DNA from: Anaerolineae bacterium
Lineage (GTDB): Bacteria > Chloroflexota > Anaerolineae > CG2-30-64-16
Reading direction: 5' to 3'
Length of the DNA stretch: 64,000 bases
Assembly: GCA_034432655.1 (NCBI GenBank)
Contig: DAOUBP010000157.1
Coordinates: 6,874 to 70,873 of the forward strand
The notes under the pieces are model-generated. The model was not told the origin of the DNA and did no database searches. It was given only the letters and a program-made list of their open reading frames with translations. The stretch's first letter is position 1, and each line of letters opens with the position of its first letter. The position numbers and the translations under genes were made by a program. Of the stretch, positions 21,221-54,900 are shown piece after piece.

Positions 21221-24085
21221 GTGCGCAAACATCTTTGGGTTCTTGTGCTCTACGCCTTGCTCAGCCTGCTGCTCACCTGGCCCACGGCAGCGCACTTCAG
21301 CACCCACGTGCCCGGCGACGGCATTGACGATCCCTCTCTCGCGTGGAACCTTTGGTGGGTCAAATATGCCCTGGTGGATCGGCCGCAGAATCCGTTTAGC
21401 TGCACCTGGCAGTTCTGGCCGATTGGGATCAATCTGGCCTTCTATACGCTGACGGTTCTCAACGGGCTGCTCAGCGTGCCGTGGCAGGTGGTCTTCGGCG
21501 TGGTGCCCGCCTATAACATCCTGCTGCTGTCGTCGTTTGTCTTGAGCGGGCTCGGCGCCTATTTGCTGAGCCTGGATTTCCTGAAGCGTCATTCACACAG
21601 CGCGTCTGCCCACCGTCCTGCTCAGGATGTTTCCCCAGGCCATTCTGATGGCACAAAGGGCCCAGAGAAACAAGGGGAGCTGCGGGTGCTGGCCGCCGCG
21701 TTTGTCGGCGGCGCGTTCTATGCGTTTGCGTCGGCCAAGATGTTCTACGCAGCGTTGGGCCAGGGCAACATCGCCAGCTCACAGTGGATCCCTTTTGCGG
21801 CGCTGTACATCCTGCGGGCTACCCGGGCCGACGGCAAGCCGCGGGAAGCGTGGCTGGCAGCGCTTTTCCTGATCCTCCAGGCCTACGCGGAGATGACCTA
21901 TGCGTCGTTCCTGGTGGTATTTGCGGCCCTGTGCGTGTTGCGTACTGCGTACAGCGTATTGCGTACGAAATACAGAATACGAAGTGCGCAGTACGCAGTA
22001 CAGAATACGGAATACACGGTACGCAATCCGCAATCCGCAATCCCCAATCCCCAATCCATCATCCTCCGCCTTGCGCTCTTCGCCCTGATCTTCGCCGTGG
22101 GGATCGCGCCGATCCTGGCCAACATGCTGCCCGACCTGCGGGCCGAGGGCGATTTCTTCACCTCCGGGGGCGGGTTTGCCGACATCTTTTCGGCCGATCT
22201 GGCGGGCTATCTGGTGCCCACGCAGCTCCATCCGGTGTTGGGCGGCCTGGTGCGGCAGTGGTCGAACAATGCCATGCCGCAACCGGACGGCCGCCACTTC
22301 GCGGTGGATAAAGGACAGCAGATCTATTTGGGCTATGTCGCGCTCGCCCTGGCGGGGGTGGGGGGTTGGCACGGCCGGCGCCGCGGCGGGACATGGTTCT
22401 GGGCCGCGGCGGCCGCGCTTTTCTTCCTGCTTACCCTGGGGCCCTCTTTGCGTATCGCCGGCCAGGATACCGGTATCCCCTTGCCTTTTCGGATTATGGA
22501 ACAATTGCCGTTTTTCAAAGGGAACCGCTATCCCAGCCGCTACAGCGTCATGCTGTTGGTAAGCCTGGCCCCACTGGTCGCGGCGGGGGTGGATCGGGTG
22601 ATTGCCTGGGCGGACCGTAGACGGCAGGCGGCAGATGGCAGATGGCGGATAGTTTCCTCTTTTCCTTTTCTCCTTCTCCTGCTCCTCCTCTTCGAGCACC
22701 TCTCCGTGCCGCTGCCCGTCTTCGACCTGCGGGTGCCAGCACTTTACGACCGGGTCGCGGCCGAGCCGGGCGATTTCGCCTTGTTGGAGCTGCCCCTGGG
22801 CTGGCGCAACGGTGCGCGTGTCGCCGGCAAGCAAGACATCGTGATCATGCAGCAGCTGTGGTATCAAACCCGACATGGCAAACGGCTGCTGGGCGGCAAC
22901 ACCTCGCGCAACCCGGAGTATAAGTTCCAGTATTTCAGCGAGGACCCCACTCTGGCGCGGCTTATCGCCGTGATCAACGCCGCTGACCTGCCGCAACACA
23001 CTGCACTGCGCGCCGCCCTGGCTGCGCGGCCCGTCACCGAGGCCGAACGGGCCGCAGCGCGCGCCTGGGCAGCCCTGCTGGAGGTCCGCTACGTCATGGT
23101 ACACCGGGACAAACTGCCTGCCGAGGCCGAGGCGTTGGCGCGTGACCTTCTGCCGCTGGACCTGGTGGCCGAGGAGGGGAGCCTGGCCCTCTACCGGCTC
23201 AGCCGACCGCTGGCCCCACCGGTGCAATTCTTGCCCGGTAGTGACACGGGGCGGCGCGTCCTCGGCGAGGGCTGGAGCCCACCCCCGTTCGACCCCGGCC
23301 AGGCGCCGGGGCCTGTCTACGCGCAACGGAAGGAAGCCCGCCTGCTGTTGCCGTTGCCCACAGCAGAAGCAACGCTCTTGCTGTCCGGCCAGGCGCTGAC
23401 CGCCGGGCAGACCGTGACCCTGATCGTCAACGGACACCGGATCGGTACGCAACCGTGGCCGCCAGAGCCCACAGCTCTGGCGTTCACCGTGCCGGCCGAC
23501 CCGACACGTCCGCCCTTGAGCGATGTGCGCTTACGCTTCGCCCGCGTCGCACCCCAGGCCGGGTTCGCCGGTGAACGCCGTGCCGTCGGGGTGCTCATCC
23601 GCAGCGCAGGCCAGGAAACAGGCGATTTCGCGCACATCTACATCGCCGGCCAGGACAGGTCACCTAACCGCCGCGGCTATAACCTGGTGGCCTTCGACCC
23701 GGGCCAGGGCCAGGTGGTGGCCGCGGCCGCCTTTGACACCCATGCCGATCCCGCCGCCGGCGCTGCGCTGGCCCGGTGGGTGGCAGCGCTGCCCGCAGGG
23801 CTGACGGTGGCGGGCGCCGTGCGCGATGAGGCCGCGATGAACCTTACCGAGGAGGCGGTTACAGCCTTGCGCAGCCTGGGGGTGATAAACGACTTGCGCG
23901 GCCATTTCCGCTGGGGCCATGCCTTCCTGGGCCAAAAGGGCGCCGCAGCCGGCACCGCGGTCGAGGCCCTGGACGGCCTCCGGCCTGCCCAGATACAGGT
24001 CGCGCCGGCGCTCAGCGCGACCGCTGCGGCCGTGACCCTGACGCAGATCGAGATCATCCCCAGCACCACGCGAATCGTCCAGTAA
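21221..24085 (+). CDS. Large polytopic membrane protein with C-terminal ILEI/FAM3-like domain (putative glycosyltransferase-associated); carries an in-frame heptad-repeat insertion
   Basis: More than 10 TM segments. PGDGIDDPSLAWNLWW N-terminal motif. C-terminal ...YIAGQDRSPNRRGYNLVAFDPGQGQVV... Start at GTG 21221 after GAGGAG. Confidence 0.55.
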   Translation: MRKHLWVLVLYALLSLLLTWPTAAHFSTHVPGDGIDDPSLAWNLWWVKYALVDRPQNPFSCTWQFWPIGINLAFYTLTVLNGLLSVPWQVVFGVVPAYNILLLSSFVLSGLGAYLLSLDFLKRHSHSASAHRPAQDVSPGHSDGTKGPEKQGELRVLAAAFVGGAFYAFASAKMFYAALGQGNIASSQWIPFAALYILRATRADGKPREAWLAALFLILQAYAEMTYASFLVVFAALCVLRTAYSVLRTKYRIRSAQYAVQNTEYTVRNPQSAIPNPQSIILRLALFALIFAVGIAPILANMLPDLRAEGDFFTSGGGFADIFSADLAGYLVPTQLHPVLGGLVRQWSNNAMPQPDGRHFAVDKGQQIYLGYVALALAGVGGWHGRRRGGTWFWAAAAALFFLLTLGPSLRIAGQDTGIPLPFRIMEQLPFFKGNRYPSRYSVMLLVSLAPLVAAGVDRVIAWADRRRQAADGRWRIVSSFPFLLLLLLLFEHLSVPLPVFDLRVPALYDRVAAEPGDFALLELPLGWRNGARVAGKQDIVIMQQLWYQTRHGKRLLGGNTSRNPEYKFQYFSEDPTLARLIAVINAADLPQHTALRAALAARPVTEAERAAARAWAALLEVRYVMVHRDKLPAEAEALARDLLPLDLVAEEGSLALYRLSRPLAPPVQFLPGSDTGRRVLGEGWSPPPFDPGQAPGPVYAQRKEARLLLPLPTAEATLLLSGQALTAGQTVTLIVNGHRIGTQPWPPEPTALAFTVPADPTRPPLSDVRLRFARVAPQAGFAGERRAVGVLIRSAGQETGDFAHIYIAGQDRSPNRRGYNLVAFDPGQGQVVAAAAFDTHADPAAGAALARWVAALPAGLTVAGAVRDEAAMNLTEEAVTALRSLGVINDLRGHFRWGHAFLGQKGAAAGTAVEALDGLRPAQIQVAPALSATAAAVTLTQIEIIPSTTRIVQ
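21931..22058 (+). repeat. Heptad tandem repeats (TGCGTAC, TACGCAG, CGCAATC, CCCAATC) inside CDS 21221..24085
   Basis: Encodes LRTAYSVLRTKYRIRSAQYAVQNTEYTVRNPQSAIPNPQSII in frame. Confidence 0.75.
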
Positions 24086-24140
24086 TTCGCAGTTGCATTT
24101 TGGGGTGTGATACGCTATCATGCGGCGGGCAGGAGCCCGG

Positions 24141-24788
24141 CTACCAGGGCGATACCGCTGACTCAATCGCCGGGGTCGGCGTGGGCACGACGACCCGCTC
24201 GGGACCGGATGTTTCCGGGGCTGCCGATACGGGAGGCGCGCTCCAGCCAGTGGAACCGACGGCTGGGCCTGGCGTGGCGACAACAGCCGGGGGCGCCGAC
24301 GCAGCGGCCCCTCTGGTTGTGAGGACCTGTCCCACGCGGATGACGTCCGAGCGCAAGCCGTTCCACCGCTTGAGACTGGTCACGCTCACGCCGCAGCGCC
24401 GGGCGATTTTCGCCAGGGTATCGCCCGCCCGTACCGTATAGTACAGGGGACACCCTGCGTTCCCGGGGCTGCTGGCCGCACTCACCGGCACGGCCAAGGC
24501 AGCGCCAGCCGGCATGACAAGCCGCTGGCCGGGGTAGATAATGGCGTCCAAGCGCAACCCGTTGGCCTGCGCCAGCTGAACTGTGGAGACACCACAACGC
24601 CCGGCGATTGCGGACAGGGTGTCGCCGGCACGCACCACGTAATACGGGATACAGCCGCCGGCGCGATTGATTGTCGGGCCGACGGCGCCAGGTGGGGTCG
24701 CTCTAGCCACCGACGGCAATCCGAAGGAGGCTAAGCCCGCCACGATGAGAAACGCCAACACGCCCGGCAGAGGAGAACGGTGGCTCAT
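24141..24788 (-). CDS. LysM domain-containing secreted protein (3 LysM repeats)
   Basis: YVVRAGDTLSAIAGRCGVS and YTVRAGDTLAKIARRCGVS LysM repeats. Signal peptide from MSHRSPLP. Confidence 0.8.
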   Translation of the reverse strand: MSHRSPLPGVLAFLIVAGLASFGLPSVARATPPGAVGPTINRAGGCIPYYVVRAGDTLSAIAGRCGVSTVQLAQANGLRLDAIIYPGQRLVMPAGAALAVPVSAASSPGNAGCPLYYTVRAGDTLAKIARRCGVSVTSLKRWNGLRSDVIRVGQVLTTRGAAASAPPAVVATPGPAVGSTGWSAPPVSAAPETSGPERVVVPTPTPAIESAVSPW

Positions 24789-24909
24789 GGACTTGTCCTC
24801 CTTTGAAGATGACGTTCGCCGCCCATGTGCAGGGTCTTGTAGGTGCATTCCGTCATCTAAAATAACTATATCACATTTCAATTCAGATTACAATAGCATT
24901 TATTTGAAA

Positions 24910-27900
24910 TTGCAAAGGCAAAATCATGAGAGGCTGTGGCGCATCGGCATCTGGCTCCTGATGGCAGTGCTGGTCTGGTTGCCGTCCACCGGCCAGGCAG
25001 CCGAGGAGCTCGCCTCCCTGTGGACGACCTTCACTGTGGAAGATGGCCTGCGCTCGGGGAATATCCTGTCCATCCTGGTGGCGCAAGACGGCACGCTTTG
25101 GTTCGGGACCGATGCCGGGGCGGGGCACTATGACGGGAGCTGGCGATGGCTGACTGAGGCAGATCGTCTGCCGGCAGGCAGAGTGCACGCCATGGCACAA
25201 ACGGCAGACGGGGCGCTGTGGTTTGCGACCAGCGCAGGGCTGGCCAGGCTGACGCCCGATGCCCCTTGTTGCACCGTATGGACAACGGCTCTCGGGCTGC
25301 CGTCGGACGACGTTCTCAGCCTGGTCGCTGCCTCTTACCCGGCAACCGACAATAAACGTCCGGGGGTTTGGGTCGGCACGGCCGGAGGTCTGGCTTACGT
25401 AGATCCACAACAGGTGACGGTTGAACGCGAGGTGCCGCCTGCAGGCATCTCAGCATTGGCGCTGGGCAGCGACGGCGTGCTGTTGGCGGGCGTCCGGGGC
25501 CGCGGTGTGTGGCAGCGCAGCCCCGCTGGCCGTTGGCAAGAACCGGAAGACACCGGGCTGTTCACAGGGGATATCTACGCGCTGTTGCCGGAGGCAGACG
25601 GCACCCTCTGGGCCGGGACGACAAACGGCCTGTTGCTGCGCCGGCCGGGCGCTCCGTGGGAGCGTTTTCCCCTGACTGAGGGCAATCGGGTCCTGCCGGT
25701 CTTCGCCCTCGTACGGGATCCCCATGGCGGATTGTGGGCAGCCACCGATCAAGGGATCTATTATGACCCGGACGCCAGGGCCGACGGCCTGCCCGTAACC
25801 CACATCCGCGCCGGCCAGGGCAGCCTGGTGAACGACTACGTACGCGCGTTGGCCCTCGACCGCGATAACGCCCTCTGGTTAGGCACCATCGGCGGGGTGA
25901 ACCGCTACACGGGTCTGATCTGGCACGTGATAACCGATGAACCCTTGTCTGGCCAGCGGATCAACGCCGTGTTGACCGACCATGCCGGCCGCGTTTGGAT
26001 CGCCACCGAGAACAACGGCCTGGTGCTGCGTGACCGCACGCGCTGGCGCCACATCACGGCCCCCGAAAGCCTGCCCGACAACCGTGCGGTAACCCTGTTC
26101 GAAGACGATACCGGCCGGGTATGGGTTGCCACCGGCACGGCGGTCGGCCGGCTGGCCGAAAACAATGGCTCGTGGCGCTTCGAGCCGCTGGATACCCGCG
26201 GCCTGATCGGCCTGCCCGTCTTCGCGTTCGCGCAAGATACCCGCGGCGGCCTGTGGCTGGGGGGCGAACAGGGAGCGGCGCGCTGGACAGCGCAGGAGGG
26301 CATCCAACGGGTCGTCGAACTGGAGGGCCAGCGTGTCAACGCGATCTATCAGGCGCAGGACGGCGTCCTGTGGTTCGGCACCCGAGGGGACGGCCTGATC
26401 CGCCGGGTCAACGGCCAGTGGCAGGCGCTGGCCGGCGCACCTGGCGGCGTGACGGTCAACGACGTGGTGGTCAACGGCATCGGCCAGACCGCTGATGGCA
26501 GCCTGTGGGTCGGCACGTATAACGACGGCCTGTGGCGGTTCCATGCTGGTCTGTGGGAACGCAACGACATGAACCTGGCCAGCCCCAAAATCCTGGCCCT
26601 GCACGCTGTGGAAGACGGCCTCTGGGTGGGCACCCGCCAGGGGCTGTCGCATTTTGACGGGCTCACCTGGCAAAGCTACCGGGGAGATGCGCTCCCGGGA
26701 TCCTGGGTAACTGCGTTGGCGGCGGAGAGGGCCGGCGCGGTCTGGATCGGCACCACGGCCGGCCTGGTGCAATACCGGCCCGAAAAAACCGCTCCCTGGG
26801 TGCAGATCGAAGCAGTGAACCTGGAAAAACCCAAGAACGGTTACCTTGCGCTCAGGGAGGACAGGTTGCGCAGCATACTCCTCCGCGCGGGCGACCTGGC
26901 CACGCGTCCCGGCGACCTGGTGTACCTGACGCAAATCGAAGGGCTCGAAAACGCCCCCCGCGTCCATACCACGCCCCAGATTGCCGCCTATAGCAGCCTG
27001 GCCCTGGCGCCGGGCACCTACGTGCTGCGAGTGATGGCCCGCGATGCCGCCTTCAACTATTCCCGGCCGGCCGAACTGAGCATTACGGTGCCGCGCATGG
27101 TGGTCTTGCCCGGCGGGCACAAGGTGCGCGCCGTCCTGTTCTATCCGCTGCTGACAGCCGGTGCGTTGATCCTGACAGGCCTCGGTATCACCAGCGGCAT
27201 CGGCCTGCGCGCCCGCGCCCGGGCTCGTCGGCTGACGGCAGAGAAAGCACAGCGACAGCGCGAGGCGCTGGCACGTGGCTTCAACCCTTACATCTCGGGC
27301 GAGCCGATCCGCGAACCGGACATGTTCTTCGGCCGCGAAGCGTTGTTACAGCGCGTCTTCAACGCCCTTCATCAAAACAGCATCATGATCCACGGCGAAC
27401 GGCGCATGGGCAAGACCACCCTGCTCTATCAGCTGGCCGACCTGCTGCGCCAGACCGACGATCCCGAGTGGATGTTCGTGCCGGTGTATGTTGATCTGGA
27501 GGGCACGCCGGAGCAACGTTTCTTCCATCAGTTGATAGAGGCGATCTGGAGCGCCCTGCAGAGCTACCTGAAAGGGACGGCCCTCCCGCTACGCTTCCAG
27601 ACCGCAACGCCGGAAGCCTACAGCGATCGCGATTTTGCAGCCGACCTCCGGCTTGTGCTGGACAAGATGAAGGAGGCGGTTGCGCCGCGCACGCTGCGCG
27701 TGATCCTGCTGATGGATGAAATGGATGTCGTCAGCAGCTACAACACGCTGACACAACAACAGTTTCGCCGTATACTGATGAGCTCCCTGGCCACCCATCT
27801 GGGCGCTGTGGTGGCGGGGGTGCACATCAGCAAAGATTGGGACCGCCTGGAAAGTCCCTGGTACAACCTGTTCAACGAGGTCGCCCTGGAACCGTTCAGC

Positions 27901-37402: not shown

Positions 37403-39994
37403 GTGATTGCGACCCCTGCTTCCCATTGGACCCCAGCCCCCGCCGCACGACGCGGTGCAACCTGGCTCGTCATCGGGCTGATGCTGCTGTTCGCTGCCTG
37501 GTTCTCGGCCTACAGCATCCGTCTACATGACGCACACCTGACCCATAAGGCCGACTTGGGGCAGATTGATCATGCCATCTGGAACACGGCCCACGGCCGG
37601 TTACTGCAAGAGATAAAGGATGATCACCTCAGCACGCGGCTGACCGACCACGTGGAACCGATTTTTTTGTTGGTAGCCCCGATCTTCTGGCTGTGGGATG
37701 ACGTGCGCGCCCTGCTGGTGTTGCAAGCGGTGGCGTTGGCTGCGGGCGCCTGGCCGATTTACCTGTTCGCGCGCCAGAAGCTCATCCGGGTGGCGCCCGG
37801 CGCAATGGCGGAGTGGGGTGCAGCGGTATTTGCGGCAGCCTATCTTCTGTACCCGGCGCTGCAAGCAGCCGCCGTCGCCGAGTTCCACGCGCTGCCACTG
37901 GCTGCGCCGCTGATCGCGGCCGCGGTGTGGGCAGCCGAAGAGCAACGCTGGGGCCGGTTTGTCCTCTGGACTGTAGCAGTGATGGCGGTTCAAGAAGGCG
38001 CGGCGCTGTTGGGTGCCACGCTGGGCGCCTATGTGGCGGTCACCAGCGGTCGCGCCGCCTGGCAGAACCGGGTTTCGCGGAGAAACCCGATTTCGACGGG
38101 GCCACTCGCCAAGGGCGTCGTCAGTGGCCTGGGCGTCTTCCTGGCCGGCCTGGTTTGGTTCGGCCTTGCTACCTTCGTCATCATCCCCCGCTTTGCGGCT
38201 GCGGCTTACGCCCTGGATCAGAGCCCTTACGTGGCCCGTTATGGCGCGCTGGGCGATTCTTTCGGAGATGTGTTGATCGCCCTGGTCACCCGACCTGCGA
38301 CAGTCGTGCAAATCGCAGGGGAGCCGCTGCGCGTGCAATATCTGCTGGGACTGCTGCTGCCCGCGGCCGGGCTGGCATTACTCAGCCCCGGGCTACTGCT
38401 GGCCAGCGCACCCTTGCTGCTGGCGAACCTGCTCAGCGCGTTCCCCTTGCAGTTCTCGGGTGAATCGCACTATTCTGCTGCGTTGGTACCATTCTTTGTG
38501 CTGGCGGCTGCCTCAGGTGCGGCACGGGTGCTGGGACGTCAGAAAGCGCAACAAGGCTGGGCAGCCTTGATGGGCAACCGGCTGCCGGCCTTTATGTTCA
38601 GCGTCGTAGCGATGTGCGCCATCGTGTTTCAAGTGGCCGAAGGGTTCACACCCATCGGCGGCGAATTCCGACGGAGCCCCAGCCGAGGCTGGCCGGAGGT
38701 GACTGCCCATCACCGACTGCTGGAGCGCCTCGCCCGCGACATCCCGGCCGACGCAGCCGTCTCTACCACACCGCCGCTACATCCACATCTCTCGCACCGC
38801 CAGCGCATCTACCTTTTCCCGGTCATCGGGGACGCGGACTATGTGCTGGTAGATGTGGCCGGCACCACCGACATGCACCCGGCCGATGTCAAGGCCAAAC
38901 TGGAGCGACTGATCGCCACCGGCGAGTTTGGCGTGGTGGCTGCCGAGGACGGCTATCTGCTCTTGGCCCGTGATGCAAGCAGGCCAGTTGGCGGCGTTCC
39001 CGATCCCTTCTTCGACTTCGCCCGGGCCAAAAAGCCACCACGCTACCCTCTGGATGTGACATTTGGCGATCATCTCACACTGATCGGGTATGATGTGGAG
39101 GATAACCCCAAATGGCGGCTGACGCGCTTGCGGTTCTACTGGCAGGTTGACAAGCCCTTGCCTGCCGACGCGACTTTAAAGTTTCAAGTGATGACGCCCT
39201 GGGGCGAAATCGCTGATGATAGTGCGTTGCGTCCCCCGCCAGCACTCCTGTGGTACCCGCCAGCGCAATGGCGTCCGGGAGAAACGTTGATGATCGAGAC
39301 CCTGCCGTGGTTCATGCCACGGGCCTGGGCCGCAACGCTGTCCCTCACAACCAGCTCCGGACCGTTGTGGCCGCAGGTCAACGCCGCATCCCCCGTCCCC
39401 GAGCTGGAAATAGCCCCGGATGGCCGGTTGCGCCTGCCGGCATGGACGCGAAAAGAAGGCGCATTGGTGCCGCTGAGCGGCTCGCCCTATCCCTCCGAAC
39501 CGGCCGAGGCGCGCTTTGCCCAGGGGAACTGGACAGTCCGATTGCTGGAATGGGCGGCGCCGATGGCGGCAGCGCCGGGTGGCGTTCTGCCGGTGATGCT
39601 GCATTGGCGCGCTAACGGCCCCGCCGGACAAGACCTGGCAGTGTTCCTGCATTTGCGCGACGCCACAGGGCGCACCGTAGCCCAGGGCGATGCCGGCCCG
39701 GCCTGGTTCGTGCCACGGCCGACCTCACAGTGGCCGACCAAAAACGGCGATCCCGCGGGCCTCTGGAGTGCCCATGCGATTTCACTGCCGGACGACATGC
39801 CGGAAGGCCGTTACGAGCTGGTGGTAGGCTGGTACGATTGGCAGAGCGGTATGCGGCTCCCATCAGTGGACGCAGTGGGGAACCCCAACGGAGATGAATA
39901 CGTCCTTGGCCCCGTAACGCTTGACCAACGGGCCGTACCGCGACCTGATATCGCTTGCCTGTTGCTGCCGGAAAGCTGTGCGGCGCAGGAGTGA
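37403..39994 (+). CDS. DUF2079-family polytopic membrane protein (putative GT-C-like glycosyltransferase) with large C-terminal extracytoplasmic domain
   Basis: HDAHLTHKADLGQIDHAIWNTAHG N-terminal motif. Multi-TM. Confidence 0.65.
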   Translation: MIATPASHWTPAPAARRGATWLVIGLMLLFAAWFSAYSIRLHDAHLTHKADLGQIDHAIWNTAHGRLLQEIKDDHLSTRLTDHVEPIFLLVAPIFWLWDDVRALLVLQAVALAAGAWPIYLFARQKLIRVAPGAMAEWGAAVFAAAYLLYPALQAAAVAEFHALPLAAPLIAAAVWAAEEQRWGRFVLWTVAVMAVQEGAALLGATLGAYVAVTSGRAAWQNRVSRRNPISTGPLAKGVVSGLGVFLAGLVWFGLATFVIIPRFAAAAYALDQSPYVARYGALGDSFGDVLIALVTRPATVVQIAGEPLRVQYLLGLLLPAAGLALLSPGLLLASAPLLLANLLSAFPLQFSGESHYSAALVPFFVLAAASGAARVLGRQKAQQGWAALMGNRLPAFMFSVVAMCAIVFQVAEGFTPIGGEFRRSPSRGWPEVTAHHRLLERLARDIPADAAVSTTPPLHPHLSHRQRIYLFPVIGDADYVLVDVAGTTDMHPADVKAKLERLIATGEFGVVAAEDGYLLLARDASRPVGGVPDPFFDFARAKKPPRYPLDVTFGDHLTLIGYDVEDNPKWRLTRLRFYWQVDKPLPADATLKFQVMTPWGEIADDSALRPPPALLWYPPAQWRPGETLMIETLPWFMPRAWAATLSLTTSSGPLWPQVNAASPVPELEIAPDGRLRLPAWTRKEGALVPLSGSPYPSEPAEARFAQGNWTVRLLEWAAPMAAAPGGVLPVMLHWRANGPAGQDLAVFLHLRDATGRTVAQGDAGPAWFVPRPTSQWPTKNGDPAGLWSAHAISLPDDMPEGRYELVVGWYDWQSGMRLPSVDAVGNPNGDEYVLGPVTLDQRAVPRPDIACLLLPESCAAQE

Positions 39995-40061
39995 CAGGGA
40001 TAGGAGGCACAGAGACACGGAGACGAAGGGTCAAGGGAAACGCGGAGAACAGCAGGCCAGC

Positions 40062-42191
40062 GTGAAACGAAACCGACGCGCCGATCCTGCTCGGCTCTGG
40101 CTGGCAGCCATGTTGCTGCTGGCCCTCGCCCTGCGCGTCTACCGGCTGGACGCGCAAAGTCTGTGGTACGACGAGGCAGTCACCGCGCAGGTGGCCGGCC
40201 GCGGCATCGCCGAGCTCACCCGCTGGACCGCCGATGACATCCAACCGCCGCTGTATTACTACGTGGTGGCCGGTTGGACGCGGCTGGCCGGCCGCTCCGA
40301 ATGGGCGCTGCGTTTCCCTTCTGCCTGCTTCGGCATCCTGACGGTGCCGCTGCTTTGGGCGGCCGGCCGGCGCCTGTTTGGCCGCAGGAACACCGGGCGC
40401 TGGGCGGCCGGCCTCGCGGCGTTGCTGGCTGCGACCTTACCGCTCTACGTCTACTACGCTCAGGAAGCACGCATGTACACGCTGCTGACGTTCCTGGGCG
40501 CCCTGGCCGGGTATGCCCTGCTGCGGACGACGGCCAGGAAGCCGGGGGCAGAGGACAGGGAGCAGGGGACAGGCGCCAGGGAGCAGGCAACCGAGGACAG
40601 GCAGCAGGAGACAGAGGACAAAGGGGCCAGGGAAACCAGTTCAGGCCGGCCAGGCGGATTTGCGCCCTTGGTTGTCAGGGCAACAGGCTCGACCTGGTGG
40701 CTCGTTTTCGTGCTGGCTGCGGCGGCCTTGCTCTACACCCACTACTTCGGCATCTTCTTGCTGGGCGCATATGGCATCTGCTGGTTGGCGTGGTGGACCC
40801 TGACAGCTCACGCGACAAGGCTGCGCTCGCTGACCGCGTTCGCGATCTCCGCCCTGACGATCATCGTGCTCTATCTGCCCTGGCTGCCGGCCATGCTCAA
40901 CCGTTATCGGGCCGACGCATCCTACTGGCGGGGCGCGCTGAAACTGGGCGAAGCGCTGCGCCACGTCGCGATCAACTTCAGCGTGGCCGCACCGGAGATG
41001 ATGCTGGAAAGCGAGGCCGTGCGACTGCTGCCCATCTTCGGCGGGGCCTTTGCCCTGGCCTTGATCTCGCTCTTCTGGCAGGGCAGACATGCGCGCCAGG
41101 CCAGCCTTCTGCTGATCGTCCTGCTGGTGCCGATAATCGCTGTGCTGTTCCTGGCCTCGCGCACCCCTAAGTTCAACCCACGCTACCTGATGCTGGCATC
41201 ACCGGCGTATGTGCTGCTGTTGGCGGGCGGCGTCAGCGCGCTGCGTGGACGACGTGAAAAGCCCCCGACACGACAAGGCATGCAGCACGCCACACGCAGC
41301 ACACCATACGCCATACGCCACACCTCAGCCCTCCTGCTGACCGCCTTCCTGGTTGCAGCGTCTCTGGTCAGCCTTCGTAACTGGTTCACCGACCCGGCCT
41401 TCACCAAGGCCCAGTGGCGCGAGTTGACCGCCTTGGTGCGCGCCGAACGCGCGCCAGATGAAGCTGTGCTGCTGGTCTCCGGCCATGCGTATCCGGCCTG
41501 GGACTACTACGCGGCCGATATCCCGGTTGTGCGGCTGCCCCAGATCGAGATCCTGGACGTCAACGCCGTGTTGGATTTCGGTGTCGGCGCAGAGCTGGCC
41601 ACTGCCCTGGCCGGCAAAAAGGGCGCCTGGCTGGTAAGCTGGCAGGATGAGGTAGTGGATCCCGTGGGGATCGTGCCCTACCTCCTGGAGCGCGCTGGGG
41701 CCGAGCAGGAAGTCCCCCGCAGCTTCTGGCACCTGAAACTACGGCACTGGCGGCTGCAGCCTGATGCCGCCTTCCCGACCGAGCCGCAACCCCAGCACCT
41801 CCAGGGCGCCAACTTCGACCACAAACTGGCGCTGTTGGGCTGGGATGACCCGGTGGGTGGCGAGATCATCATGTACTGGCGCGTGCTCAACATGCTGACC
41901 CAAGACTACCAGATCGCGCTGGTGATCGAGGACGCGGCAGGCAACCGGTTGGGCCAGTGGGATGGCCGGCCGGCCGGTTACCATTACCCGACGTTTCGCT
42001 GGCGGCCCGGCCAGGTTTTGTTCGGCCGTTACCCGCTCCCGCTGCCGGCTGGGGCGGCCGCCGGGGATTACACCATCACTTTGACCGTCTACGACCCCGC
42101 CGACCCCAGCGGCCTGGACATCCGTGACGTGGCCGATAACCCGGCCGGCAAACAGGCACGCCTGGGGCCGGTACGGATGAGGGGGGATTAG
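40062..42191 (+). CDS. GT-C glycosyltransferase, ArnT/PMT (GT39/GT83)-like, with heptad-repeat-encoded low-complexity inserts
   Basis: YDEAVTAQVAGRGIAE...DIQPPLYYYVVAGWTRLAG N-terminal loop motif. Multi-TM. The start (GTG 40062 or ATG 40110) is uncertain. Confidence 0.7.
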   Translation: MKRNRRADPARLWLAAMLLLALALRVYRLDAQSLWYDEAVTAQVAGRGIAELTRWTADDIQPPLYYYVVAGWTRLAGRSEWALRFPSACFGILTVPLLWAAGRRLFGRRNTGRWAAGLAALLAATLPLYVYYAQEARMYTLLTFLGALAGYALLRTTARKPGAEDREQGTGAREQATEDRQQETEDKGARETSSGRPGGFAPLVVRATGSTWWLVFVLAAAALLYTHYFGIFLLGAYGICWLAWWTLTAHATRLRSLTAFAISALTIIVLYLPWLPAMLNRYRADASYWRGALKLGEALRHVAINFSVAAPEMMLESEAVRLLPIFGGAFALALISLFWQGRHARQASLLLIVLLVPIIAVLFLASRTPKFNPRYLMLASPAYVLLLAGGVSALRGRREKPPTRQGMQHATRSTPYAIRHTSALLLTAFLVAASLVSLRNWFTDPAFTKAQWRELTALVRAERAPDEAVLLVSGHAYPAWDYYAADIPVVRLPQIEILDVNAVLDFGVGAELATALAGKKGAWLVSWQDEVVDPVGIVPYLLERAGAEQEVPRSFWHLKLRHWRLQPDAAFPTEPQPQHLQGANFDHKLALLGWDDPVGGEIIMYWRVLNMLTQDYQIALVIEDAAGNRLGQWDGRPAGYHYPTFRWRPGQVLFGRYPLPLPAGAAAGDYTITLTVYDPADPSGLDIRDVADNPAGKQARLGPVRMRGD
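40532..40640 (+). repeat. Heptad-periodic repeat (xxxCAGG units) inside GT-C CDS
   Basis: Encodes RKPGAEDREQGTGAREQATEDRQQETEDKGARE. A second heptad tract (CATACGC units) lies at about 41281-41322. Confidence 0.6.
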
Positions 42192-42287
42192 GGAGTGCGG
42201 ATGGCGAATTACGGACTGCCGCTCATGAGAATAATTTGAGTTGCAATTTTGACGTTGGGTAATCTATCGTTTAGACTCTCACCACCA

Positions 42288-42333
42288 TTCGTTGATTCGC
42301 CGATTCGCTGATTCGCCGATTCGCTATTCGCTC
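42288..42333. repeat. Heptad tandem repeat GATTCGC x6 (reverse complement of the GCGAATC family)
   Basis: Seen directly, upstream of the 42349 gene. Confidence 0.75.
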
Positions 42334-43653: not shown

Positions 43654-43763
43654 GACAGGGGGTAGGGGTCAGAGGTCAGTCCTCGTGCTGCCCGGGGCGT
43701 GAAATCTCAGGCAACTCCTGCCGGGTTGCCCTGCTGGGCAGCGGGTTAATGACGAGATGGGAG

Positions 43764-44822
43764 ATGGACGCGCAACACGGAGTACGCAATACGCAATACG
43801 GAGTACGCAATACGCAATACGGAGTACGCAATACGCTCGCCATCATCGTCGTCAGCTACAACGTGCGTGATTTGTTGCGCGCCTGCCTGCAAGCCACGTA
43901 CGCCAGCCTGGCGCTCAGCCCGGAGATCGCGGCAACCGTGTGGGTGGTAGACAACGCCTCGGCCGATGGCAGCGCCGAGATGGTAGCGGCCGAATTCCCC
44001 CAAGCGCGCTTGATCGCCAGCCCCCAGAATCTGGGCTTCGCCGGCGGCAACAACTTGGTGTTGCATGCACTGGGCTTTGGAGATTCAACACAACAGGATG
44101 ATCGGAAACACTCCCCAAGCCCCAATCCCCAATACGTCCTTCTGCTCAACCCCGACGCCGAACCCATCGGCGACGCCATCGGACAGATGGTCCGTTTCTT
44201 GCGCGAACACCCGGGAGTTGGTGGCGCCGGCGCGCAGCTCCAGTACCCCGATGGCAGATTTCAGCACGCCGCGTTCGCCTTTCCGGGGCTGCTGCAACTG
44301 TGGTTCGACCTCTTCCCCCCGCGGCCGCGGCGGCTGTTAGATTCCCGCCTCAACGGCCGCTACCCCAGACGGCGCTACCAGGCCGGGCAACCCTTCCCGG
44401 TTGATTTCGTCTTGGGCGCGGCGTTGCTGGTGCGGCGAGAGGCGATCGCGGCGGTGGGCCTGCTGGATGAGGGCTACTTTATGTACGCCGAAGAGGTGGA
44501 CTGGTGCTGGCGGATGCGCCGCGCGGGCTGGCCGCTATGGTGCGTGCCCTCGGCCCGCGTGATCCATCATGGCGGCGCCAGCGCGCAGCAATTCCGCTCG
44601 CAATCGTTCGTCAACCTCTGGCGCAGCCGCCAGCGCTTGTATTCTCGTTTCTATGGGCCGCTGCGGCAAAGGCTGGCAAGCTGGATCGTGCGCCTGGGCA
44701 TGGCAGCCGAGATCAGGCGGGCAAAAGCCGGCTACAGACGCGGGGAGATCAGCATGGAAGAACGGGAGGCCCGAATCCAGGCAGCGCAAACCGTGAAAAA
44801 GCTATTCGCGAGGAACAGATGA
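43764..44822 (+). CDS. Glycosyltransferase family 2
   Basis: IIVVSYNVRDLL...VDNASADGS...GFAGGNN GT2 motifs. The 5' end carries a repeat-encoded (GVRNTQY)x3. Confidence 0.75.
   Translation: MDAQHGVRNTQYGVRNTQYGVRNTLAIIVVSYNVRDLLRACLQATYASLALSPEIAATVWVVDNASADGSAEMVAAEFPQARLIASPQNLGFAGGNNLVLHALGFGDSTQQDDRKHSPSPNPQYVLLLNPDAEPIGDAIGQMVRFLREHPGVGGAGAQLQYPDGRFQHAAFAFPGLLQLWFDLFPPRPRRLLDSRLNGRYPRRRYQAGQPFPVDFVLGAALLVRREAIAAVGLLDEGYFMYAEEVDWCWRMRRAGWPLWCVPSARVIHHGGASAQQFRSQSFVNLWRSRQRLYSRFYGPLRQRLASWIVRLGMAAEIRRAKAGYRRGEISMEEREARIQAAQTVKKLFARNR
43779..43836 (+). repeat. 21-nt unit (GGAGTAC-GCAATAC-GCAATAC) x about 3 within the 5' coding region of the GT2
   Basis: Seen directly. Confidence 0.75.
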
Positions 44823-48755: not shown

Positions 48756-48783
48756 TTGACATTCTCGTGAAAATCATTATAAT
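48756..48783 (+). promoter_or_regulatory. Near-consensus sigma70 promoter TTGACA / 16 bp / TATAAT
   Basis: Read directly; 60 nt upstream of the Rrf2 start. Confidence 0.55.
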
Positions 48784-48802: not shown

Positions 48803-48842
48803 ATTCCTCAACGCAAGTTCTTACGCAACCGGCTGAGCTGCC

Positions 48843-49265
48843 ATGATCACTATCAACCGTGAGACCGACTATGCAGCTCGCGTGCTCCTGCATCTGGCAC
48901 TCCAGGAACCAGGCAGCCGCGTCACTGCGCAACAAATAGCCGCGCAGCGCGTGATCCCTCGTGCTCTGGTGCGCCGGGTGGTCAGCCGCCTCAGCGCCGC
49001 CGGTCTCGTGATCACGACGCGCGGCAGCGAAGGCGGGATCAGCCTGGCCCGGCCAGCTGCGCAGATCAGCCTGTTGGATGTCGTGGAAGCCCTCGAGGGG
49101 CCACTGGCTCTCAACATCTGCACCATCGAGCCCGAAGTGTGCCCCTTGATCCCGGTTTGCACCGTACACGACGCCTGGGTCCACGCCCGGCAGCTATTGC
49201 GCGACACCCTGGCCCAGATCACATTCGACAGGCTGGCGAACAAGAAGGAGGTGGGTAGCGGGTAG
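48843..49265 (+). CDS. Rrf2 family transcriptional regulator (IscR/NsrR-like, 3 Cys)
   Basis: N-terminal wHTH (YAARVLLHLA). C-x6-C-x5-C cluster ligands. Confidence 0.85.
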   Translation: MITINRETDYAARVLLHLALQEPGSRVTAQQIAAQRVIPRALVRRVVSRLSAAGLVITTRGSEGGISLARPAAQISLLDVVEALEGPLALNICTIEPEVCPLIPVCTVHDAWVHARQLLRDTLAQITFDRLANKKEVGSG

Positions 49266-49267
49266 GA

Positions 49268-49365
49268 GCGAAACAGCGAAGCAACGAATCATGAATCAGC
49301 GAATCAGCGAATCACGAATTCACTGTTCGTCCGTTCGCCGTTTGCTGATTCGCCCATTCACCGTC
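49268..49365. repeat. Heptad tandem repeat CGAATCA x~5 followed by its inverted copy (TGATTCG); large hairpin
   Basis: Seen directly between the Rrf2 gene and cydA. Confidence 0.75.
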
Positions 49366-49398
49366 AGGTATCAGCCATTTCTCTGTGGAGGTTGACGC

Positions 49399-50766: not shown

Positions 50767-50807
50767 GGGACGTATTGCGTAGTGTGTACACACAACGGAG
50801 GCAACTC

Positions 50808-51821
50808 ATGGAGCTCAGTACCCTCTGGTTTATCCTGATCGGTGTGCTTTTCACCGGTTTCTTCATCCTGGAAGGGTTTGACTACGGCGTGGGTATCCTG
50901 TTGCCGTTCTTGGGCAAGAAGGACGAAGAACGCCGGGTGATCATCAACACCATTGGTCCATTTTGGGACGCCAACGAGGTGTGGCTGCTGACGGCCGGTG
51001 GTGCGATGTTCGCCGCGTTTCCCAACTGGTACGCCACGCTGTTCAGCGGTTTCTATCTGGCGCTGTTCCTCATGCTGGCGGCATTGATCGTGCGCGGGGT
51101 GGCGTTCGAGTTCCGCAGTAAAGACAAAAATCCCCGCTGGCGCGCCCTATGGGATTGGTGCATCTTCGTCGGCAGTTTCGTGCCCGCGCTGTTGTGGGGC
51201 GTGGCAATGTCCAACATTGTGCGCGGGGTGCCCATTGACGCGAACATGCACTACGTGGGCGGCTTCTTCAACCTCTTGAATCCTTACGCGCTGTTGGGCG
51301 GCGTGGCCGGATTGGGTGTGTTCACCCTGCACGGGGCGATCTTCCTGAGCTTGCGCACCGAGGGCGAGCTACATGCACGCGCAGAAACGGTGGCGAACCG
51401 TCTGTGGCCGATCGTGCTGGCCGTCGGCGCGGCAACCGTGGTTGCCAGCTACTTCGCCACCGACATCTTCCAGCGGTTAGGGATCAACCCGGGCATCAGC
51501 GCGCTGGGCGCGGGCGCAGCATTCCTGGCCGGCGGCTGGTTCTTGCGGCAGAAGCAAACGGGGTGGGCCTTCGCCATGACCGCCCTGACCATTGCACTGA
51601 CGATCGTGACTACCTTCCGCGGGCTCTACCCGCGTGTAATGGTGTCCAGCCTGAACCCGGATTGGAGCCTGACGGTCGCCAACGCCTCGTCGTCGCCTTA
51701 CACCTTGCGCGTCATGACCATCGTCGCGCTGATCTTTGTGCCCATCGTGCTGATTTATCAGGCCTGGAATTACTGGGTGTTCCGGGCCCGGCTCAGCGGT
51801 AAGAGCGCCCTGAAGTACTGA
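50808..51821 (+). CDS. cydB: Cytochrome bd ubiquinol oxidase subunit II
   Basis: MELSTLWFILIGVLFTGFFILEGFDYGVG. ACGGAGG RBS. Confidence 0.9.
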   Translation: MELSTLWFILIGVLFTGFFILEGFDYGVGILLPFLGKKDEERRVIINTIGPFWDANEVWLLTAGGAMFAAFPNWYATLFSGFYLALFLMLAALIVRGVAFEFRSKDKNPRWRALWDWCIFVGSFVPALLWGVAMSNIVRGVPIDANMHYVGGFFNLLNPYALLGGVAGLGVFTLHGAIFLSLRTEGELHARAETVANRLWPIVLAVGAATVVASYFATDIFQRLGINPGISALGAGAAFLAGGWFLRQKQTGWAFAMTALTIALTIVTTFRGLYPRVMVSSLNPDWSLTVANASSSPYTLRVMTIVALIFVPIVLIYQAWNYWVFRARLSGKSALKY

Positions 51822-51876
51822 TCTGCCTCGGTGCAGGTGTAGTCAATCAGGCTCAATAGCAGCAAAGGGGTGAGCG

Positions 51877-51933
51877 TCCTCAGATGCGGACGGCGAATGC
51901 GCACAACCCTGTAAGACCGCTCGCATCTGAGGA
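51877..51933 (+). other. 12-bp perfect inverted repeat (TCCTCAGATGCG...CGCATCTGAGGA) with 33-nt loop between cydB and cydDC
   Basis: Seen directly. Confidence 0.3.
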
Positions 51934-51992
51934 TGCTTGCTCCTCAGCCTTACTCCCCAACGCCATTCCTGGCAGTCACCCACGGGCTCGGC

Positions 51993-54900
51993 ATGTCTAA
52001 ATTCTTCGACCGCCGCCTTCTGAAAGAGGCCCAAGAGCGCCGCCTCGGCCTGGGACTGACCGTTGCGCTCAGCGCGCTGGCCGGCATCCTGACGGTGGGC
52101 CAGGCAACCGCTCTGAGTCATGCCGTAGCTGCCGTTTTCCTGGCCAACAGCGATCTGGGAGGCGTGCAACCCTGGCTGCTGGCACTGGCCGGCCTGACGG
52201 CGGCGCGCAGCCTGGCGGCCTGGGGAGGCGAGGTGGCGGCCAATCGCCTGGCGTTACAAGTGAAAAGCACGCTGCGCGCGCGGCTGATGGGCCACATCCT
52301 GACGTTGGGCCCGGCCTACATCCGAGGCGAGCGCACCGGTGAGCTGGTCAACACGGTCACCGAAGGGGTCGAGGCGCTGGATGCATACTTCAGCCAATAC
52401 CTGCCGCAAGTGGCACTGGCCGCTATTGTCCCGTTGGCTTTCCTCGCCGTCGTGTTCCCACGCGATCCGCTTTCCGGCCTGGTGTTGCTCCTGACAGCAC
52501 CGCTGATCCCCCTCTTCATGGTGCTGATCGGCAACGTGGCAGACGCGCTCACCCGCCGCCAATGGGGCGCACTCGGCCGCATGAGCGCGCACTTCCTGGA
52601 CGTGCTACAGGGTTTGACCACTCTCAAACTTTTCGGCCGCAGCCGGGAGCAGATCGCCATCATCCGACAGATCACCGATCAGCATCGCGATGCTACGCTG
52701 AAGGTGCTGCGGGTGGCTTTCCTGTCTGCTCTGGTGCTGGAGATGGTGGGCACGATCAGCACCGCCATCGTCGCGGTCGCGATCGGCCTGCGGTTGCTTT
52801 ACGGCAAGATGCTCTTTCAAGACGCGTTTTTCGTGTTGATCCTGGCTCCGGAATTCTACCTGCCGTTGCGCCTGCTGGGCACGCGTTTTCACGCCGGCAT
52901 AGCGGGGGTGGCAGCGGCTGGACGTATCTTCCAGGTGTTAGAGACAGGGGAGTGCAGAGACGCGGCGACGCAGGGACGCGAGGACATTGGGGCGCAGAGA
53001 CGCGGCGACGCGGACACAGAAACGCGGGGACGCGAAGACGCAGGGACATTGAGATGCGGGGGCGCGGAGACGCAAGGACGCTCTGCGTCTCCCTCTCTCC
53101 ACGTCTCCCTCTCCCCCCCTCTCCCCCTTCGCGTCGTGTTCGAGAACGTCTCCTACACCTATCCGACCCGCGCTACCCCTGCGCTGGACAGCATCAGCTT
53201 TGAGATCGGTCCCGGCGAAGTAGTGGCACTGGTCGGCCCCACCGGCGCAGGCAAGAGCACCGTGGCACAACTGCTCCTGGGCTTTATTCGTCCCACAACG
53301 GGCAAAATCACGGCGAAGATCGAAACAAAACCCGATGCCCATCAAACCGTCCGGCCTGACGCCACACCTCAGCCCCCAGCCTCCAGCTCCCGGCTCCCGA
53401 CTCCCGGTTCCCAGCCGCCGGCCGCCAGCCCCCGGCCACCAGCTGCCAGTCTCCAGCTTCCAGCCACCAGCTTCCGTCCTGCCTGGATGCCGCAATCTCC
53501 TTATCTGTTCTACGCCTCAGTGGCCGATAACATCCGGCTCGGCCGGCCCGCTGCCTCATGGGAGGAACTGCTTCGTGCAGCCGAGGCCGCCAACGCAGAC
53601 GACTTCATCCGGGCGTTGCCTCAAGGCTACGACACCGTCATCGGCGAACGCGGGGAACGACTCAGCGGCGGCCAGGCACAGCGGATCGCCCTGGCGCGCG
53701 CCTTGCTGATGGATGCACCGCTGGTAGTGTTGGACGAGCCCACGGCCAATCTGGACCTGGAAAGCGAAGCAGCAGTGCAGGCCGGCATCGGACGTTTGCT
53801 GCAAGGCCGCAGCGCCCTGATCATCGCCCACCGGCTGAACACGGTGCGCGCCGCGGATCGCATCATCGTGCTCGATGCCGGAAGGATCGTCGAACAAGGC
53901 ACACACGACGAGCTGATGGCGCGCCAGGGCAGCTACGCACAATTGGTGACCAGTGCGCAAGCCGAGAGCGCACCGGACGCGGCGGTCAGCCCTGTGTCAC
54001 CGGCGGCCGACCTGCAAACGCTTCGGCGCCAGGACTTACACACGGCACAACGTGGAGCACAGGACACGCAACACGCGGCACACAATACCCAGGACGCAAT
54101 ACACAACACGCAGTACGGAATACACAATCCCCAATCCACAATCATCGCCCTTCTCTCGTTTCTCGCCCCTTTCTGGCGCTGGGTGGCACTGGCAGTACTG
54201 CTGGGATTTCTGGCCATCGGCAGCAGCATCGGGTTATTGGGCACCTCAGCCTGGATCATCGCCATGGCCGCACTGCAGCCTTCCATCGCAGTCCTGCAGG
54301 TCGCAATCGTGGGGGTGCGCTTCTTCGGCATCGCGCGCGGCGTTTTCCGCTACCTGGAACGCCTGGTCTCCCATCAAGTCACATTCCGGCTGCTCGCCCA
54401 ATTGCGGGTCTGGTTCTACAGCATGATCGAGCCGCTGGCACCGGCGCAGCTCTCCGGCCGGCGGAGCGGCGACCTGCTGAACAGGATCGTATCCGACATC
54501 GCGGCGCTAGAGCAGTTCTACGTCCGGGCCGTCGCACCGCCCCTGGTCGCCCTGCTCACATCTGCCCTGGCGGTCTTGATCGTCGGCCTACACCACCCGG
54601 TGTTGATCGGGCCGTTGTTGATCTTTCTGGCCTTGACCGGCCTTGCAACACCGTTCGTTGTCCAACTGCTGGCCCGACCGGTGGGGGTAGAAGTAGCAGA
54701 AAGCCGCGCTGCGCTGAGTGCTGCGCTGGTGGATGGCGTGCAAGGCGCGGCCGATTTGCTGGCCTTTGGGGCTGAGGAAACGCACCTGGGACACATACAA
54801 GACCTCGACCGCCGGCTCGCTGATGGCCAGGCGCGCACGGCGGCCATCACTGCGCTGAGCACTGCACTGGGTATCCTGTTCACGTGGCTGGCAGCAACCT

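Follow-up and report, generated by a model that had tools for sequence, protein, structure and literature searches.

Tandem arrays of heptanucleotides are a described class of bacterial simple-sequence repeats (SSRs), and form the most abundant 5-11 base category in most genomes examined (PMC4679880; PMC4692102); an origin by polymerase slippage, favouring 7-base units, has been proposed for them (summarised in PMC4679880). Here we describe arrays of 7- and 8-base units in a 64,000-nucleotide stretch (hereafter 'the window': assembly GCA_034432655.1, contig DAOUBP010000157.1, positions 6,874 to 70,873) of an Anaerolineae bacterium (Chloroflexota), in which nine tracts lie in four genes (encoding a membrane protein with an ILEI domain, two glycosyltransferases termed GT-C and GT2, and the fused transporter CydDC) and keep the reading frame in all of them. 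We consider it likely that these tracts are long-unit simple-sequence arrays, resembling the short tandemly repeated repetitive (STRR) sequences of cyanobacteria, which are resized by slippage and only passively translated. We found no literature on heptamer arrays in Chloroflexota or Anaerolineae.

The cyanobacterial STRR and the related long-unit SSRs of large, GC-rich genomes share with the window the tandem 7-base units, the many dispersed loci with genome-specific units, a copy number that varies between relatives and the presence of some inverted pairs, and differ from it in that here the host belongs to the Anaerolineae and octamers stand beside heptamers. The known STRR unit sequences are CCCCAGT, TTGGTCA and CAACAGT, and those of the window are unrelated to them. 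In the strict sense (units STRR1-3 in a cyanobacterial host) the name therefore does not apply to the present units (TGCGTAC, CGCAATC, CAGCYNC and others). The cyanobacterial octamer HIP1 (GCGATCGC) occurs 7 times in the window, as a raw count. A preliminary description of the arrays had likened them to STRR, and as STRR-like short tandem repeats they can be retained; its second comparison, with repetitive extragenic palindromes, fits poorly, as those are imperfect palindromes of 20-40 bases associated with a RAYT transposase, whereas the arrays are tandem repeats and an inverted arm accompanies no more than part of them.

Among other described heptamers, the G-quadruplex-forming GGGAATC/GGGGAYT units of Xanthomonas and Nostoc are dispersed, variable in copy number, in some cases intragenic, and to 83% position-conserved between sister species (PMC4692102), a conservation which resembles that between the window and a contig of a different species (L002, from GCA_041082185.1). 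The units described here, in contrast, are not G-tracts, so that there is no reason to expect G-quadruplexes, and hairpins arise from inverted arms. Furthermore, intragenic repeats make up 7-11% of the total in Xanthomonas (PMC4692102), whereas most period-7 bases of the window lie inside genes. The TAACTGA heptamers of marine Beggiatoaceae are found mainly in 5' leaders, with a minority in open reading frames (ORFs), where they are read as LSVISYQ, and are tolerated mostly at protein peripheries (PMC4679880). The reasoning of those authors on stop codons and orientation matches our own (PMC4679880), but their system has one dominant unit with stops in forward orientation, whereas the window has several stop-free families, and its arrays lie in the middle of conserved enzymes (even in an ABC nucleotide-binding domain), at the same sites across a class. 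Linker hot spots that recur across the class, a tract inside a nucleotide-binding domain and hairpin-forming arrays in coding sequence go beyond these earlier descriptions.

Excess, unit families and host genes in the window

Tandem arrays were called with Tandem Repeats Finder (TRF), and chance expectation was taken from 200 third-order Markov shuffles, a tract being defined by at least 80% self-match over 21 bases. The window (G+C 58-68%), whose proteins have their closest relatives in uncultured Anaerolineae metagenome-assembled genomes (MAGs), holds 8 period-7 tracts (0.05 expected) and 3 period-8 tracts (0.02 expected), with only 1, 1 and 0 tracts at periods 6, 9 and 12; the excess of more than 100-fold is confined to periods 7 and 8. 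In this the arrays agree with long-unit SSRs, i.e. head-to-tail tandems of 5-11 base units far above chance. They depart from the predominantly intergenic distribution of such SSRs, as 405 period-7 bases are coding (by a rough gene model) and fall inside the four ORFs, versus 89 intergenic ones, all at one hairpin locus (10103-10213); per base, the intergenic density of period 7 is still about twice the coding one (a rough estimate, with about 90% of the window taken as coding). Perfect octamer arrays occur exclusively in leaders. Array lengths range from 30 to 185 bases, and the edges are degenerate and fading.

The preliminary description had spoken of the same repeats throughout, which holds for the TGCGTAC/ACGCAAT/CGCAATC family, the sole one common to coding and intergenic arrays, and fails for the window as a whole, where at least five unrelated families are present. 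Within the shared family, the TGCGTAC unit at 21939 (coding) is identical to that at 10112 (intergenic), CGCAATA (43771) and CGCAATC (22022) are one mismatch apart and likewise from the TGCGTAC family, and the arrays at 41282 and 54064 were assigned to it by eye; the same unit is thus found at many scattered loci within a genome. Separate families are CAGCYNC (53370), GGACAGG/GAGCAGG (40535), the octamers at 52954 and AGATGGC (22619).

Three coding arrays (43771, 40535 and 54080) are most regular at period 21 (97%, 75% and 78% matches, respectively), whereas period 7 or 8 fits the intergenic ones best (82-91% matches by TRF). As neither 7 nor 8 is a multiple of 3, successive units of an array fall in each of the three codon phases in turn, and for this reason a codon-position signature is missing from most coding arrays: their G+C content at third codon positions (GC3) lies within 0.15 of that at second positions (GC2), whereas the two values are 0.25-0.30 apart in the host genes, and in the CydD array at 53363-53478 GC3 is lower than GC2. 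The exception is a GT-C tract (40532-40640) with a host-like gap of 0.25. From the missing signature it follows that the tracts were not shaped by codon selection.

The first host gene (21221-24085, + strand) encodes a polytopic membrane protein of 954 amino acids (aa) from a GTG start, with a C-terminal ILEI domain (Pfam PF15711); database protein P0121, which starts at MRKHLWV, is a 100% match to it, and its AlphaFold model has a mean confidence (pLDDT) of 75. The first array (21931-22065, +; TRF 21939-22057, period 7/14/28) is composed of (TGCGTAC)x4, a spacer, (GCAGTAC)-type units, (CGCAATC)x3 and (CCCAATC)x2, and is read in frame as LRTAYSVLRTKYRIRSAQYAVQNTEYTVRNPQSAIPNPQSII, which corresponds to residues 237-282 of P0121, i.e. 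the end of one helix, the following loop (258-273, where pLDDT is below 50) and the start of the next helix. The second in-frame array (22610-22694, +; TRF), made of AGATGGC x4.6 followed by TTTCCTCT/TTCTCC tracts and read as ADRRRQAADGRWRIVSSFPFLLLLLLL (ADGRWRIV...), falls in a variable loop (alignment A5; pLDDT about 54) where ortholog P0126 has MADGRWQMVDGRR. The two arrays extend across inter-helix loops with pLDDT of 40-54 and occupy two of the three variable inter-helix loops of the protein. Orthologs measure about 9-85 residues at the first of these loops (A5), and peptides such as RSTHYAL x5 and GSGVRNQ occur among them. Relative to the window, locus L083 is without exactly 42 bases in the membrane-protein loop, and in L084 the two-arm array is replaced by a one-orientation (ACGCAST)n array with a 21-base superperiod; the comparison of L084 with L085 was uninformative, as they are identical over 5826 bases.

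The second host gene (40064-42191, +) encodes a GT-C-type glycosyltransferase (PMT_2; Pfam PF13231, alignment A6). GTG 40064 is a likelier start than TTG 39921, because the maximal ORF opened by the latter overlaps the upstream gene (37403-39994); it also runs through an octamer-like tract, and the corresponding N-terminal stretch RRRSDRDRRHRDTETKGQGKRGE (39921-40063) is probably untranslated. The first tract of GT-C (40532-40640, +; TRF 40535-40620) is a degenerate heptamer/21-mer array of GGACAGG/GAGCAGG units, in which period 7 reaches only 60% matches, and is read as the charged tract GAEDREQGTGAREQATEDRQQETEDKGARE, an addition of about 45 residues to a loop; at the tract loops, the majority of homologs show either a gap or about 10 residues (A6). 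Its codon-like composition (0.67/0.56/0.81 G+C at codon positions 1/2/3) suggests an older tract and, together with its degeneracy, makes it the weakest case among the sites. The second, short array (41281-41322, +; TRF 41282-41323, period 14/7) of GCAGCAC/GCCACAC/CCATACG units is read as MQHATRSTPYAIRHT in a loop that is variable in A6 and carries SRFTFHVSRHTQHATRLTFDVLRFT in homolog P0385; FHVSRHT/QHATR peptides occur among the orthologs. Matches of GT-C in phmmer searches are broken into 3-4 stretches at the tracts.

The third host gene (43749-44822, +) encodes a family 2 glycosyltransferase of 357 aa (GT2; Pfam PF00535), for which a look-up of the exact protein returned no record; its syntenic ortholog lies at L002 985-2043. 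A near-perfect 21-base array (43768-43839, +; ACGCAAT ACGCAAT ACGGAGT x3.1; TRF 43771-43836) encodes (GVRNTQY)x3 in an N-terminal extension directly before the first beta-strand (LAIIVVSYN); its counterpart in L002, at the same position, is a degenerate array. As the interval from the array to the conserved IIVVSYN strand contains no in-frame start codon, the array must be translated if the enzyme is made. A further small in-frame array (44105-44135, +; TCCCCAA x3, read as SPSPNPQ; TRF 44112-44133) looks equivalent, by offset from the gene start rather than by alignment, to CAATCCG x5 at L002 1316-1349.

The GT2 array (43768-43839) has a unit length that is not a multiple of 3 and lies near the 5' end of a glycosyltransferase coding sequence, the classic position of the contingency loci of Haemophilus and Neisseria, and heptanucleotide SSRs have been described in Haemophilus (PMC2651432); repeat-bearing glycosyltransferase fragments of [Pasteurella] aerogenes were moreover among the matches of a peptide search (see below). 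Phase variation, in which adding or removing one 7-base unit would shift the frame and so switch envelope enzymes such as GT2 on and off, is nevertheless very improbable here. The array is 97% periodic at 21 bases and only 77% at 7, and slippage would therefore favour in-frame steps; both clean indels seen between relatives (in CydD and in the membrane-protein loop) are multiples of 21 bases, only in-frame 21- or 42-base differences were seen, frames are open across the other arrays common to relatives, and no frameshifted alleles were found among the assemblies compared. Furthermore, arrays also lie mid-gene in essential-looking domains such as the first nucleotide-binding domain of CydD, and the organism is not a host-adapted pathogen.

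When databases were queried with a synthetic RNTQYAI/RNPQSAI/RSTQYAV peptide, most matches were short ORFs consisting of repeats only, spread over many phyla, and little was learned on the host proteins. The repeat-only ORFs with RNTQYAI/RSTQYAV (P0241-P0360) come from MAGs labelled Bacteroidota, Acidobacteria, Verrucomicrobia, Desulfobulbaceae and others, and are often named 'major type 1 subunit fimbrin (pilin)' by JGI, a name that apparently misannotates translated heptamer arrays.

The sites given in the preliminary description were all recovered, as TRF found an array at every one of them, each inside an open ORF whose translation reproduces the quoted peptides; two in-frame arrays (22610-22694 and 44112-44133) had been omitted from it. 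Its reading of the heptads as 7-residue peptides is borne out at most sites, the tract at 52944-53128 (period 8/16, with a periodicity of about 8 residues) being the exception. The placement in loops and linkers that it had predicted agrees with alignments A1, A5 and A6, which put every tract in a variable segment.

Recurrent array sites in CydDC across Anaerolineae

The fourth host gene (51993-55949, +; Pfam), which lies downstream of cydAB, encodes a fused CydD-CydC ABC transporter of 1318 aa from ATG 51993 (a 100% match to P0001; PDB matches 7zd5_D and 7zd5_C for CydD and CydC). Each half comprises a transmembrane domain (TMD) and a nucleotide-binding domain (NBD), and four variable sites (S1-S4) were followed in an alignment of 17 orthologs (A1) and in 70 full-length loci out of 81 genome loci, with 11 loci of Paenibacillus, Veillonella and Neomoorella as outgroup. 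S1 (52944-53128, +; TRF period 8/16/62), in the TMD1-NBD1 linker, consists of degenerate GAGACGCG/GGGACGCA octamers followed by a reverse-complement arm (CGTCTCCC/TCTCCCCC), is not a heptad array, and measures 63 aa against a baseline of about 19 aa (19-34 aa among the 11 outgroup loci); arrays with differing units are present at S1 in L002, L003, L005 and L066. S2 (53363-53478, +; (CAGCYNC)x15; TRF 53370-53475, period 7) is located within NBD1, after the Walker A strand and before the Q-loop, and yields a Pro/Ser/Ala-rich segment of 57 aa in place of the canonical 19 aa, which is the length in 11/11 outgroup loci; the catalytic motifs of NBD1 are intact in the window. S3 (54040-54147, +; TRF 54064-54143, period 7/14/21), at the CydD-CydC junction, is built of ACACGCA/ATACACA/AATCCMC heptamers with a 21-base superperiod and is read as TQHAAHNTQDAIHNTQYGIHNPQSTI, the whole site measuring 67 aa; L002 has (CAATCCG)n there, and other orthologs RSTQYAP, RNPQSTI or INHSP repeats. 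S4, the TMD2-NBD2 linker, is expanded to 42 aa (baseline about 20 aa) by a non-periodic sequence in the window. The outgroup genera keep TMD-NBD linkers and an NBD1 segment of short, fixed length.

Across the Chloroflexota, 30 of 70 cydDC loci carry 7- or 8-base arrays, compared to 1 of the 11 outgroup loci (a weak one), and the arrays cluster at query residues ~340-390, 435-480, 600-700 and 1020-1075. Arrays are present, for example, in the cydDC of L013, from a MAG assigned to Anaerolinea thermophila. The units differ by lineage (GTGACGA, CAGGAAT, ATCAGGG, CATTAAC, ATCGACC, CCCTCCA, GTTCAAAG and others), as do the encoded peptides (RNPQSAI, APRSTQY, HSTFHIP and INHSP, as well as the 8-residue repeat GDAGTRGY, which equals three octamers; A1). 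Array density amounts to 0.234/kb in cydDC ORFs, versus 0.058/kb in 572 kb of flanking DNA. Copy number at one locus varies between related genomes: L002, syntenic with window positions 42772-64000 at about 80-86% nucleotide identity, bears arrays at matching sites with related units and different lengths, its S2 being shorter by exactly 42 bases, i.e. six heptamers or 14 codons, as in the membrane-protein loop of L083, and site lengths vary widely across the 81 loci. Besides the 57 aa of the window, the S2 segment is found cut to 9-17 aa in other Anaerolineae lineages, with catalytic motifs intact throughout (loci L003, L009, L024, L032, L038, L051 and L081), and this part of the ABC beta-subdomain appears to be dispensable in Anaerolineae.

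Between two near-identical assemblies (GCA_900175145.1 and GCA_900174595.1; proteins P0004 and P0511) 2/1317 CydDC residues differ, which are adjacent (FD versus SP) and both part of the repeat arm of S1. With SP, the sequence agrees with the SPSP repeat next to it, which hints at homogenisation, weak evidence to which assembly noise is the alternative. One contig of a MAG labelled Sphingomonadaceae (L019, JBLNDL010000091.1) carries a fused cydDC of Anaerolineae type (48% identity), in which GACGCGGA octamers occupy the TMD2-NBD2 linker, and has probably been mis-binned. To look for additional alleles, metagenomes were scanned with the array/gene junction GTACGCAATACGCTCGCCATCATC and with a 43-base anchor in cydD that is conserved in both the window and L002; neither scan gave a match.

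As short repeats can be mis-sized in MAG assemblies, we considered whether the tracts might be assembly errors or lie in pseudogenes or mis-called ORFs, so that nothing is translated. This is hardly credible: all the tracts keep the frame in which conserved domains continue downstream, in other species, too, frames are open across arrays at these sites, the motifs of NBD1 are preserved, and a Logan contig of run SRR7903765, possibly assembled from the same reads as the window and hence of no assured independence, is 100% identical to positions 51444-58704 over 7261 bases, all three cydDC arrays included. Inteins, introns and programmed frameshifts were dropped, the frames being continuous, no such domains being found and the arrays being plain tandem repeats.

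Taken together, the alignments indicate that the array sites are old, recurrent hot spots across Anaerolineae. The preliminary description had regarded the repeats as inserted, in the sense of a recent insertion of one common element, and this part of it was not upheld: the units are unrelated between lineages, and the arrays pre-date the split from GCA_041082185.1 and are altered where they stand, through indels of 42 bases and turnover of units. Distant orthologs do hold segments at the same places, as would be expected had there been no insertion, yet these are equivalent in position only and unrelated in sequence. Since the outgroups keep short lengths, the tracts are best seen as additions to the ancestral protein, but not as one-off insertions. 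The suggestion of fast protein variation, on the other hand, is well founded, the tracts being regions of rapid protein-length variation.

Inverted arms, RNA hairpins and leader arrays

Arrays occur in two forms, as inverted pairs that give strong hairpins and as single-orientation arrays that give no structure. The intergenic locus at 10103-10213, between convergent genes for a response regulator and a uracil-DNA glycosylase, consists of (TGCGTAC)x5, a spacer and (AGTACGC)x4, and folds at -58.6 kcal/mol (z -3.8; 10100-10220); it occupies the position expected of a bidirectional terminator, with no obvious T-run. In coding sequence, the first array of the membrane protein folds at -49 kcal/mol (z -4.9; 21925-22070), and strong hairpins were likewise found at expanded linkers elsewhere (L002 S1, z -3.9; L003 S4, z -4.4; L046 S3, z -9.1). 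For the single-orientation arrays of GT2, S2, S3 and GT-C, z ranges from -1.9 to +0.65, the three cydDC sites of the window lie between +0.5 and -0.7, and many expanded linker tracts across the loci form no strong hairpin. A conserved RNA-level role at the cydDC linkers is thus not supported, because many tracts, those of the window included, are unstructured and strong hairpins are restricted to some lineages, although individual sites may still have such a role.

The same evidence bears on a selected function of the arrays, either as flexible hydrophilic linkers or as RNA hairpins that would pause ribosomes or control mRNA processing for membrane insertion and folding. The repeated use of the same four CydDC domain boundaries across a class, the fourfold enrichment over flanking DNA and the strong hairpins listed above speak for such a role. 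We nonetheless regard it as quite improbable, given that hairpin potential is not conserved (many arrays being single-orientation and unstructured), that lineages differ freely in sequence, length and amino-acid composition, that minimal linkers suffice in many orthologs and in all outgroups, and that codon adaptation is absent from most arrays.

A separate 8-base family (GAATCAGC/GATTCGCY, up to 12.5 copies) is located in 5' leaders, directly upstream of the ribosome-binding site and start codon. Leader octamer arrays were observed at 12024-12131, 42284-42331, 49267-49360, 13540-13556 and 40000-40050, and the genes behind them include a DAO-family oxidoreductase (10861-12015, -), a CHU_C-domain protein (ATG 42349) and cydA (49399), whose leader octamers have an inverted partner (hairpin z -2.5); degenerate GAGACRNG octamers stand upstream of the probable GT-C start (GTG 40064). 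These octamers may represent a leader-level regulatory or structural element.

Rfam found only tRNAs in the window, with no overlap with any array. ARAGORN and Rfam agree on tRNAs Leu, Met and Met at 58089-58968; a tRNA-Ser (anticodon gga; 15330-15419, -) called by ARAGORN inside a 513-aa ORF (14118-15659, -), and without Rfam support, is probably a false positive.

Origin of the arrays and their consequences for the host proteins

Taken together, the above observations are most consistent with arrays of 7- and 8-base units, a general feature of this Anaerolineae lineage, that would arise and be resized by replication slippage or unequal recombination. Arrays would be lost wherever a gene is damaged and kept in intergenic spacers and leaders, and within genes would survive only in loops and inter-domain linkers. 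An array whose unit is stop-free in all phases on the coding strand can occupy any frame, and the peptide then repeats after as many residues as the unit has bases (7 aa per 21 bases, 8 aa per 24 bases). If only length changes in multiples of 3 pass selection, coding arrays would step by 21 or 42 bases and thereby gain a 21-base superperiod, so that their 21-base regularity, as compared to the 7- or 8-base regularity of the intergenic arrays, is what frame-constrained slippage would be expected to produce. The encoded low-complexity peptides would then be tolerated spacers, and their translation a passive by-product.

Several observations sit uneasily with slippage alone. Unit sharing (within at most one mismatch) was found in 13/60 array pairs within genomes and in 35/1140 pairs between genomes, which pure local slippage does not predict; since loci of one genome share units, this points to an additional step of dispersal, gene conversion or biased generation. 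Moreover, pairs of (unit)n followed by (reverse-complement unit)n are frequent, also in coding sequence, and simple slippage is insufficient for them. Finally, the fourfold enrichment of arrays in cydDC fits the availability of four free linkers, but could also reflect positive selection.

The first two of these observations would suit a selfish mobile repeat, akin to the Rickettsia palindromic elements (RPEs) or to miniature inverted-repeat transposable elements, in which a hairpin module of (unit)n, spacer and (reverse-complement unit)n is copied and the in-frame copies in loops survive. One unit family is indeed present at at least 6 loci of the window, both intergenic and genic, units are shared within a genome far above the between-genome level, and modules with inverted arms are found in intergenic (10103-10213) as well as genic positions (21931-22010, and S1 in L002, L003 and L068). 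RPEs, described as 'selfish DNA in protein-coding genes', provide the precedent for in-frame survival at permissive protein positions (PMC10969869), and the four unrelated hosts of the window, housekeeping genes included, resemble theirs in that the repeats are in frame, presumably translated, placed where the fold tolerates them and potentially palindromic. RPEs are, however, discrete elements of about 150 bp with a family consensus, whereas the present arrays of 7-8 base units vary in length and lack fixed ends, fading into degenerate units at their edges; neither a defined length, conserved termini and terminal inverted repeats nor shared flanks and target-site duplications were seen on reading the sequences, no dedicated search for terminal inverted repeats or target-site duplications having been run. 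Furthermore, orthologous copies in relatives differ by whole-unit indels and not by presence or absence, and no transposase or RAYT-type gene was identified, although no genome-wide search was made. The same protein positions are filled by unrelated units in many lineages, and recurrent local growth therefore fits better than independent transposition into identical sites. We thus hold a mobile element to be unlikely, and the likeness to RPEs would be one of outcome only and not of membership.

Local growth by slippage accordingly stays our preferred explanation. A more speculative reading, which we judge to be distinctly unlikely, is that an active, lineage-specific process seeds each genome's own 7- or 8-base unit at many loci, often as inverted pairs, and continually rebuilds the linkers of conserved membrane enzymes, and that some arrays located where domains meet, for instance in the TMD-NBD linkers of CydDC, may have been co-opted as RNA hairpins or ribosome pause sites. 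If true, such genome-wide seeding would be an SSR-based counterpart of the Rickettsia 'selfish DNA in proteins'.

In practical terms, the tracts split homology searches into several stretches (as seen for GT-C), repeat-only short ORFs are annotated as spurious 'hypothetical' or 'pilin' genes, and MAG assemblies may mis-size such tracts. At the same time, the tracts mark insertion-tolerant loops and linkers in CydDC, GT-C and GT2, and Anaerolineae genomes are a good place to study why the loci of one genome share units. For this large and mostly uncultured bacterial class, a mutational process that is usually discussed for intergenic DNA would also vary the length and sequence of conserved proteins, up to and including the nucleotide-binding domain of an ABC transporter.

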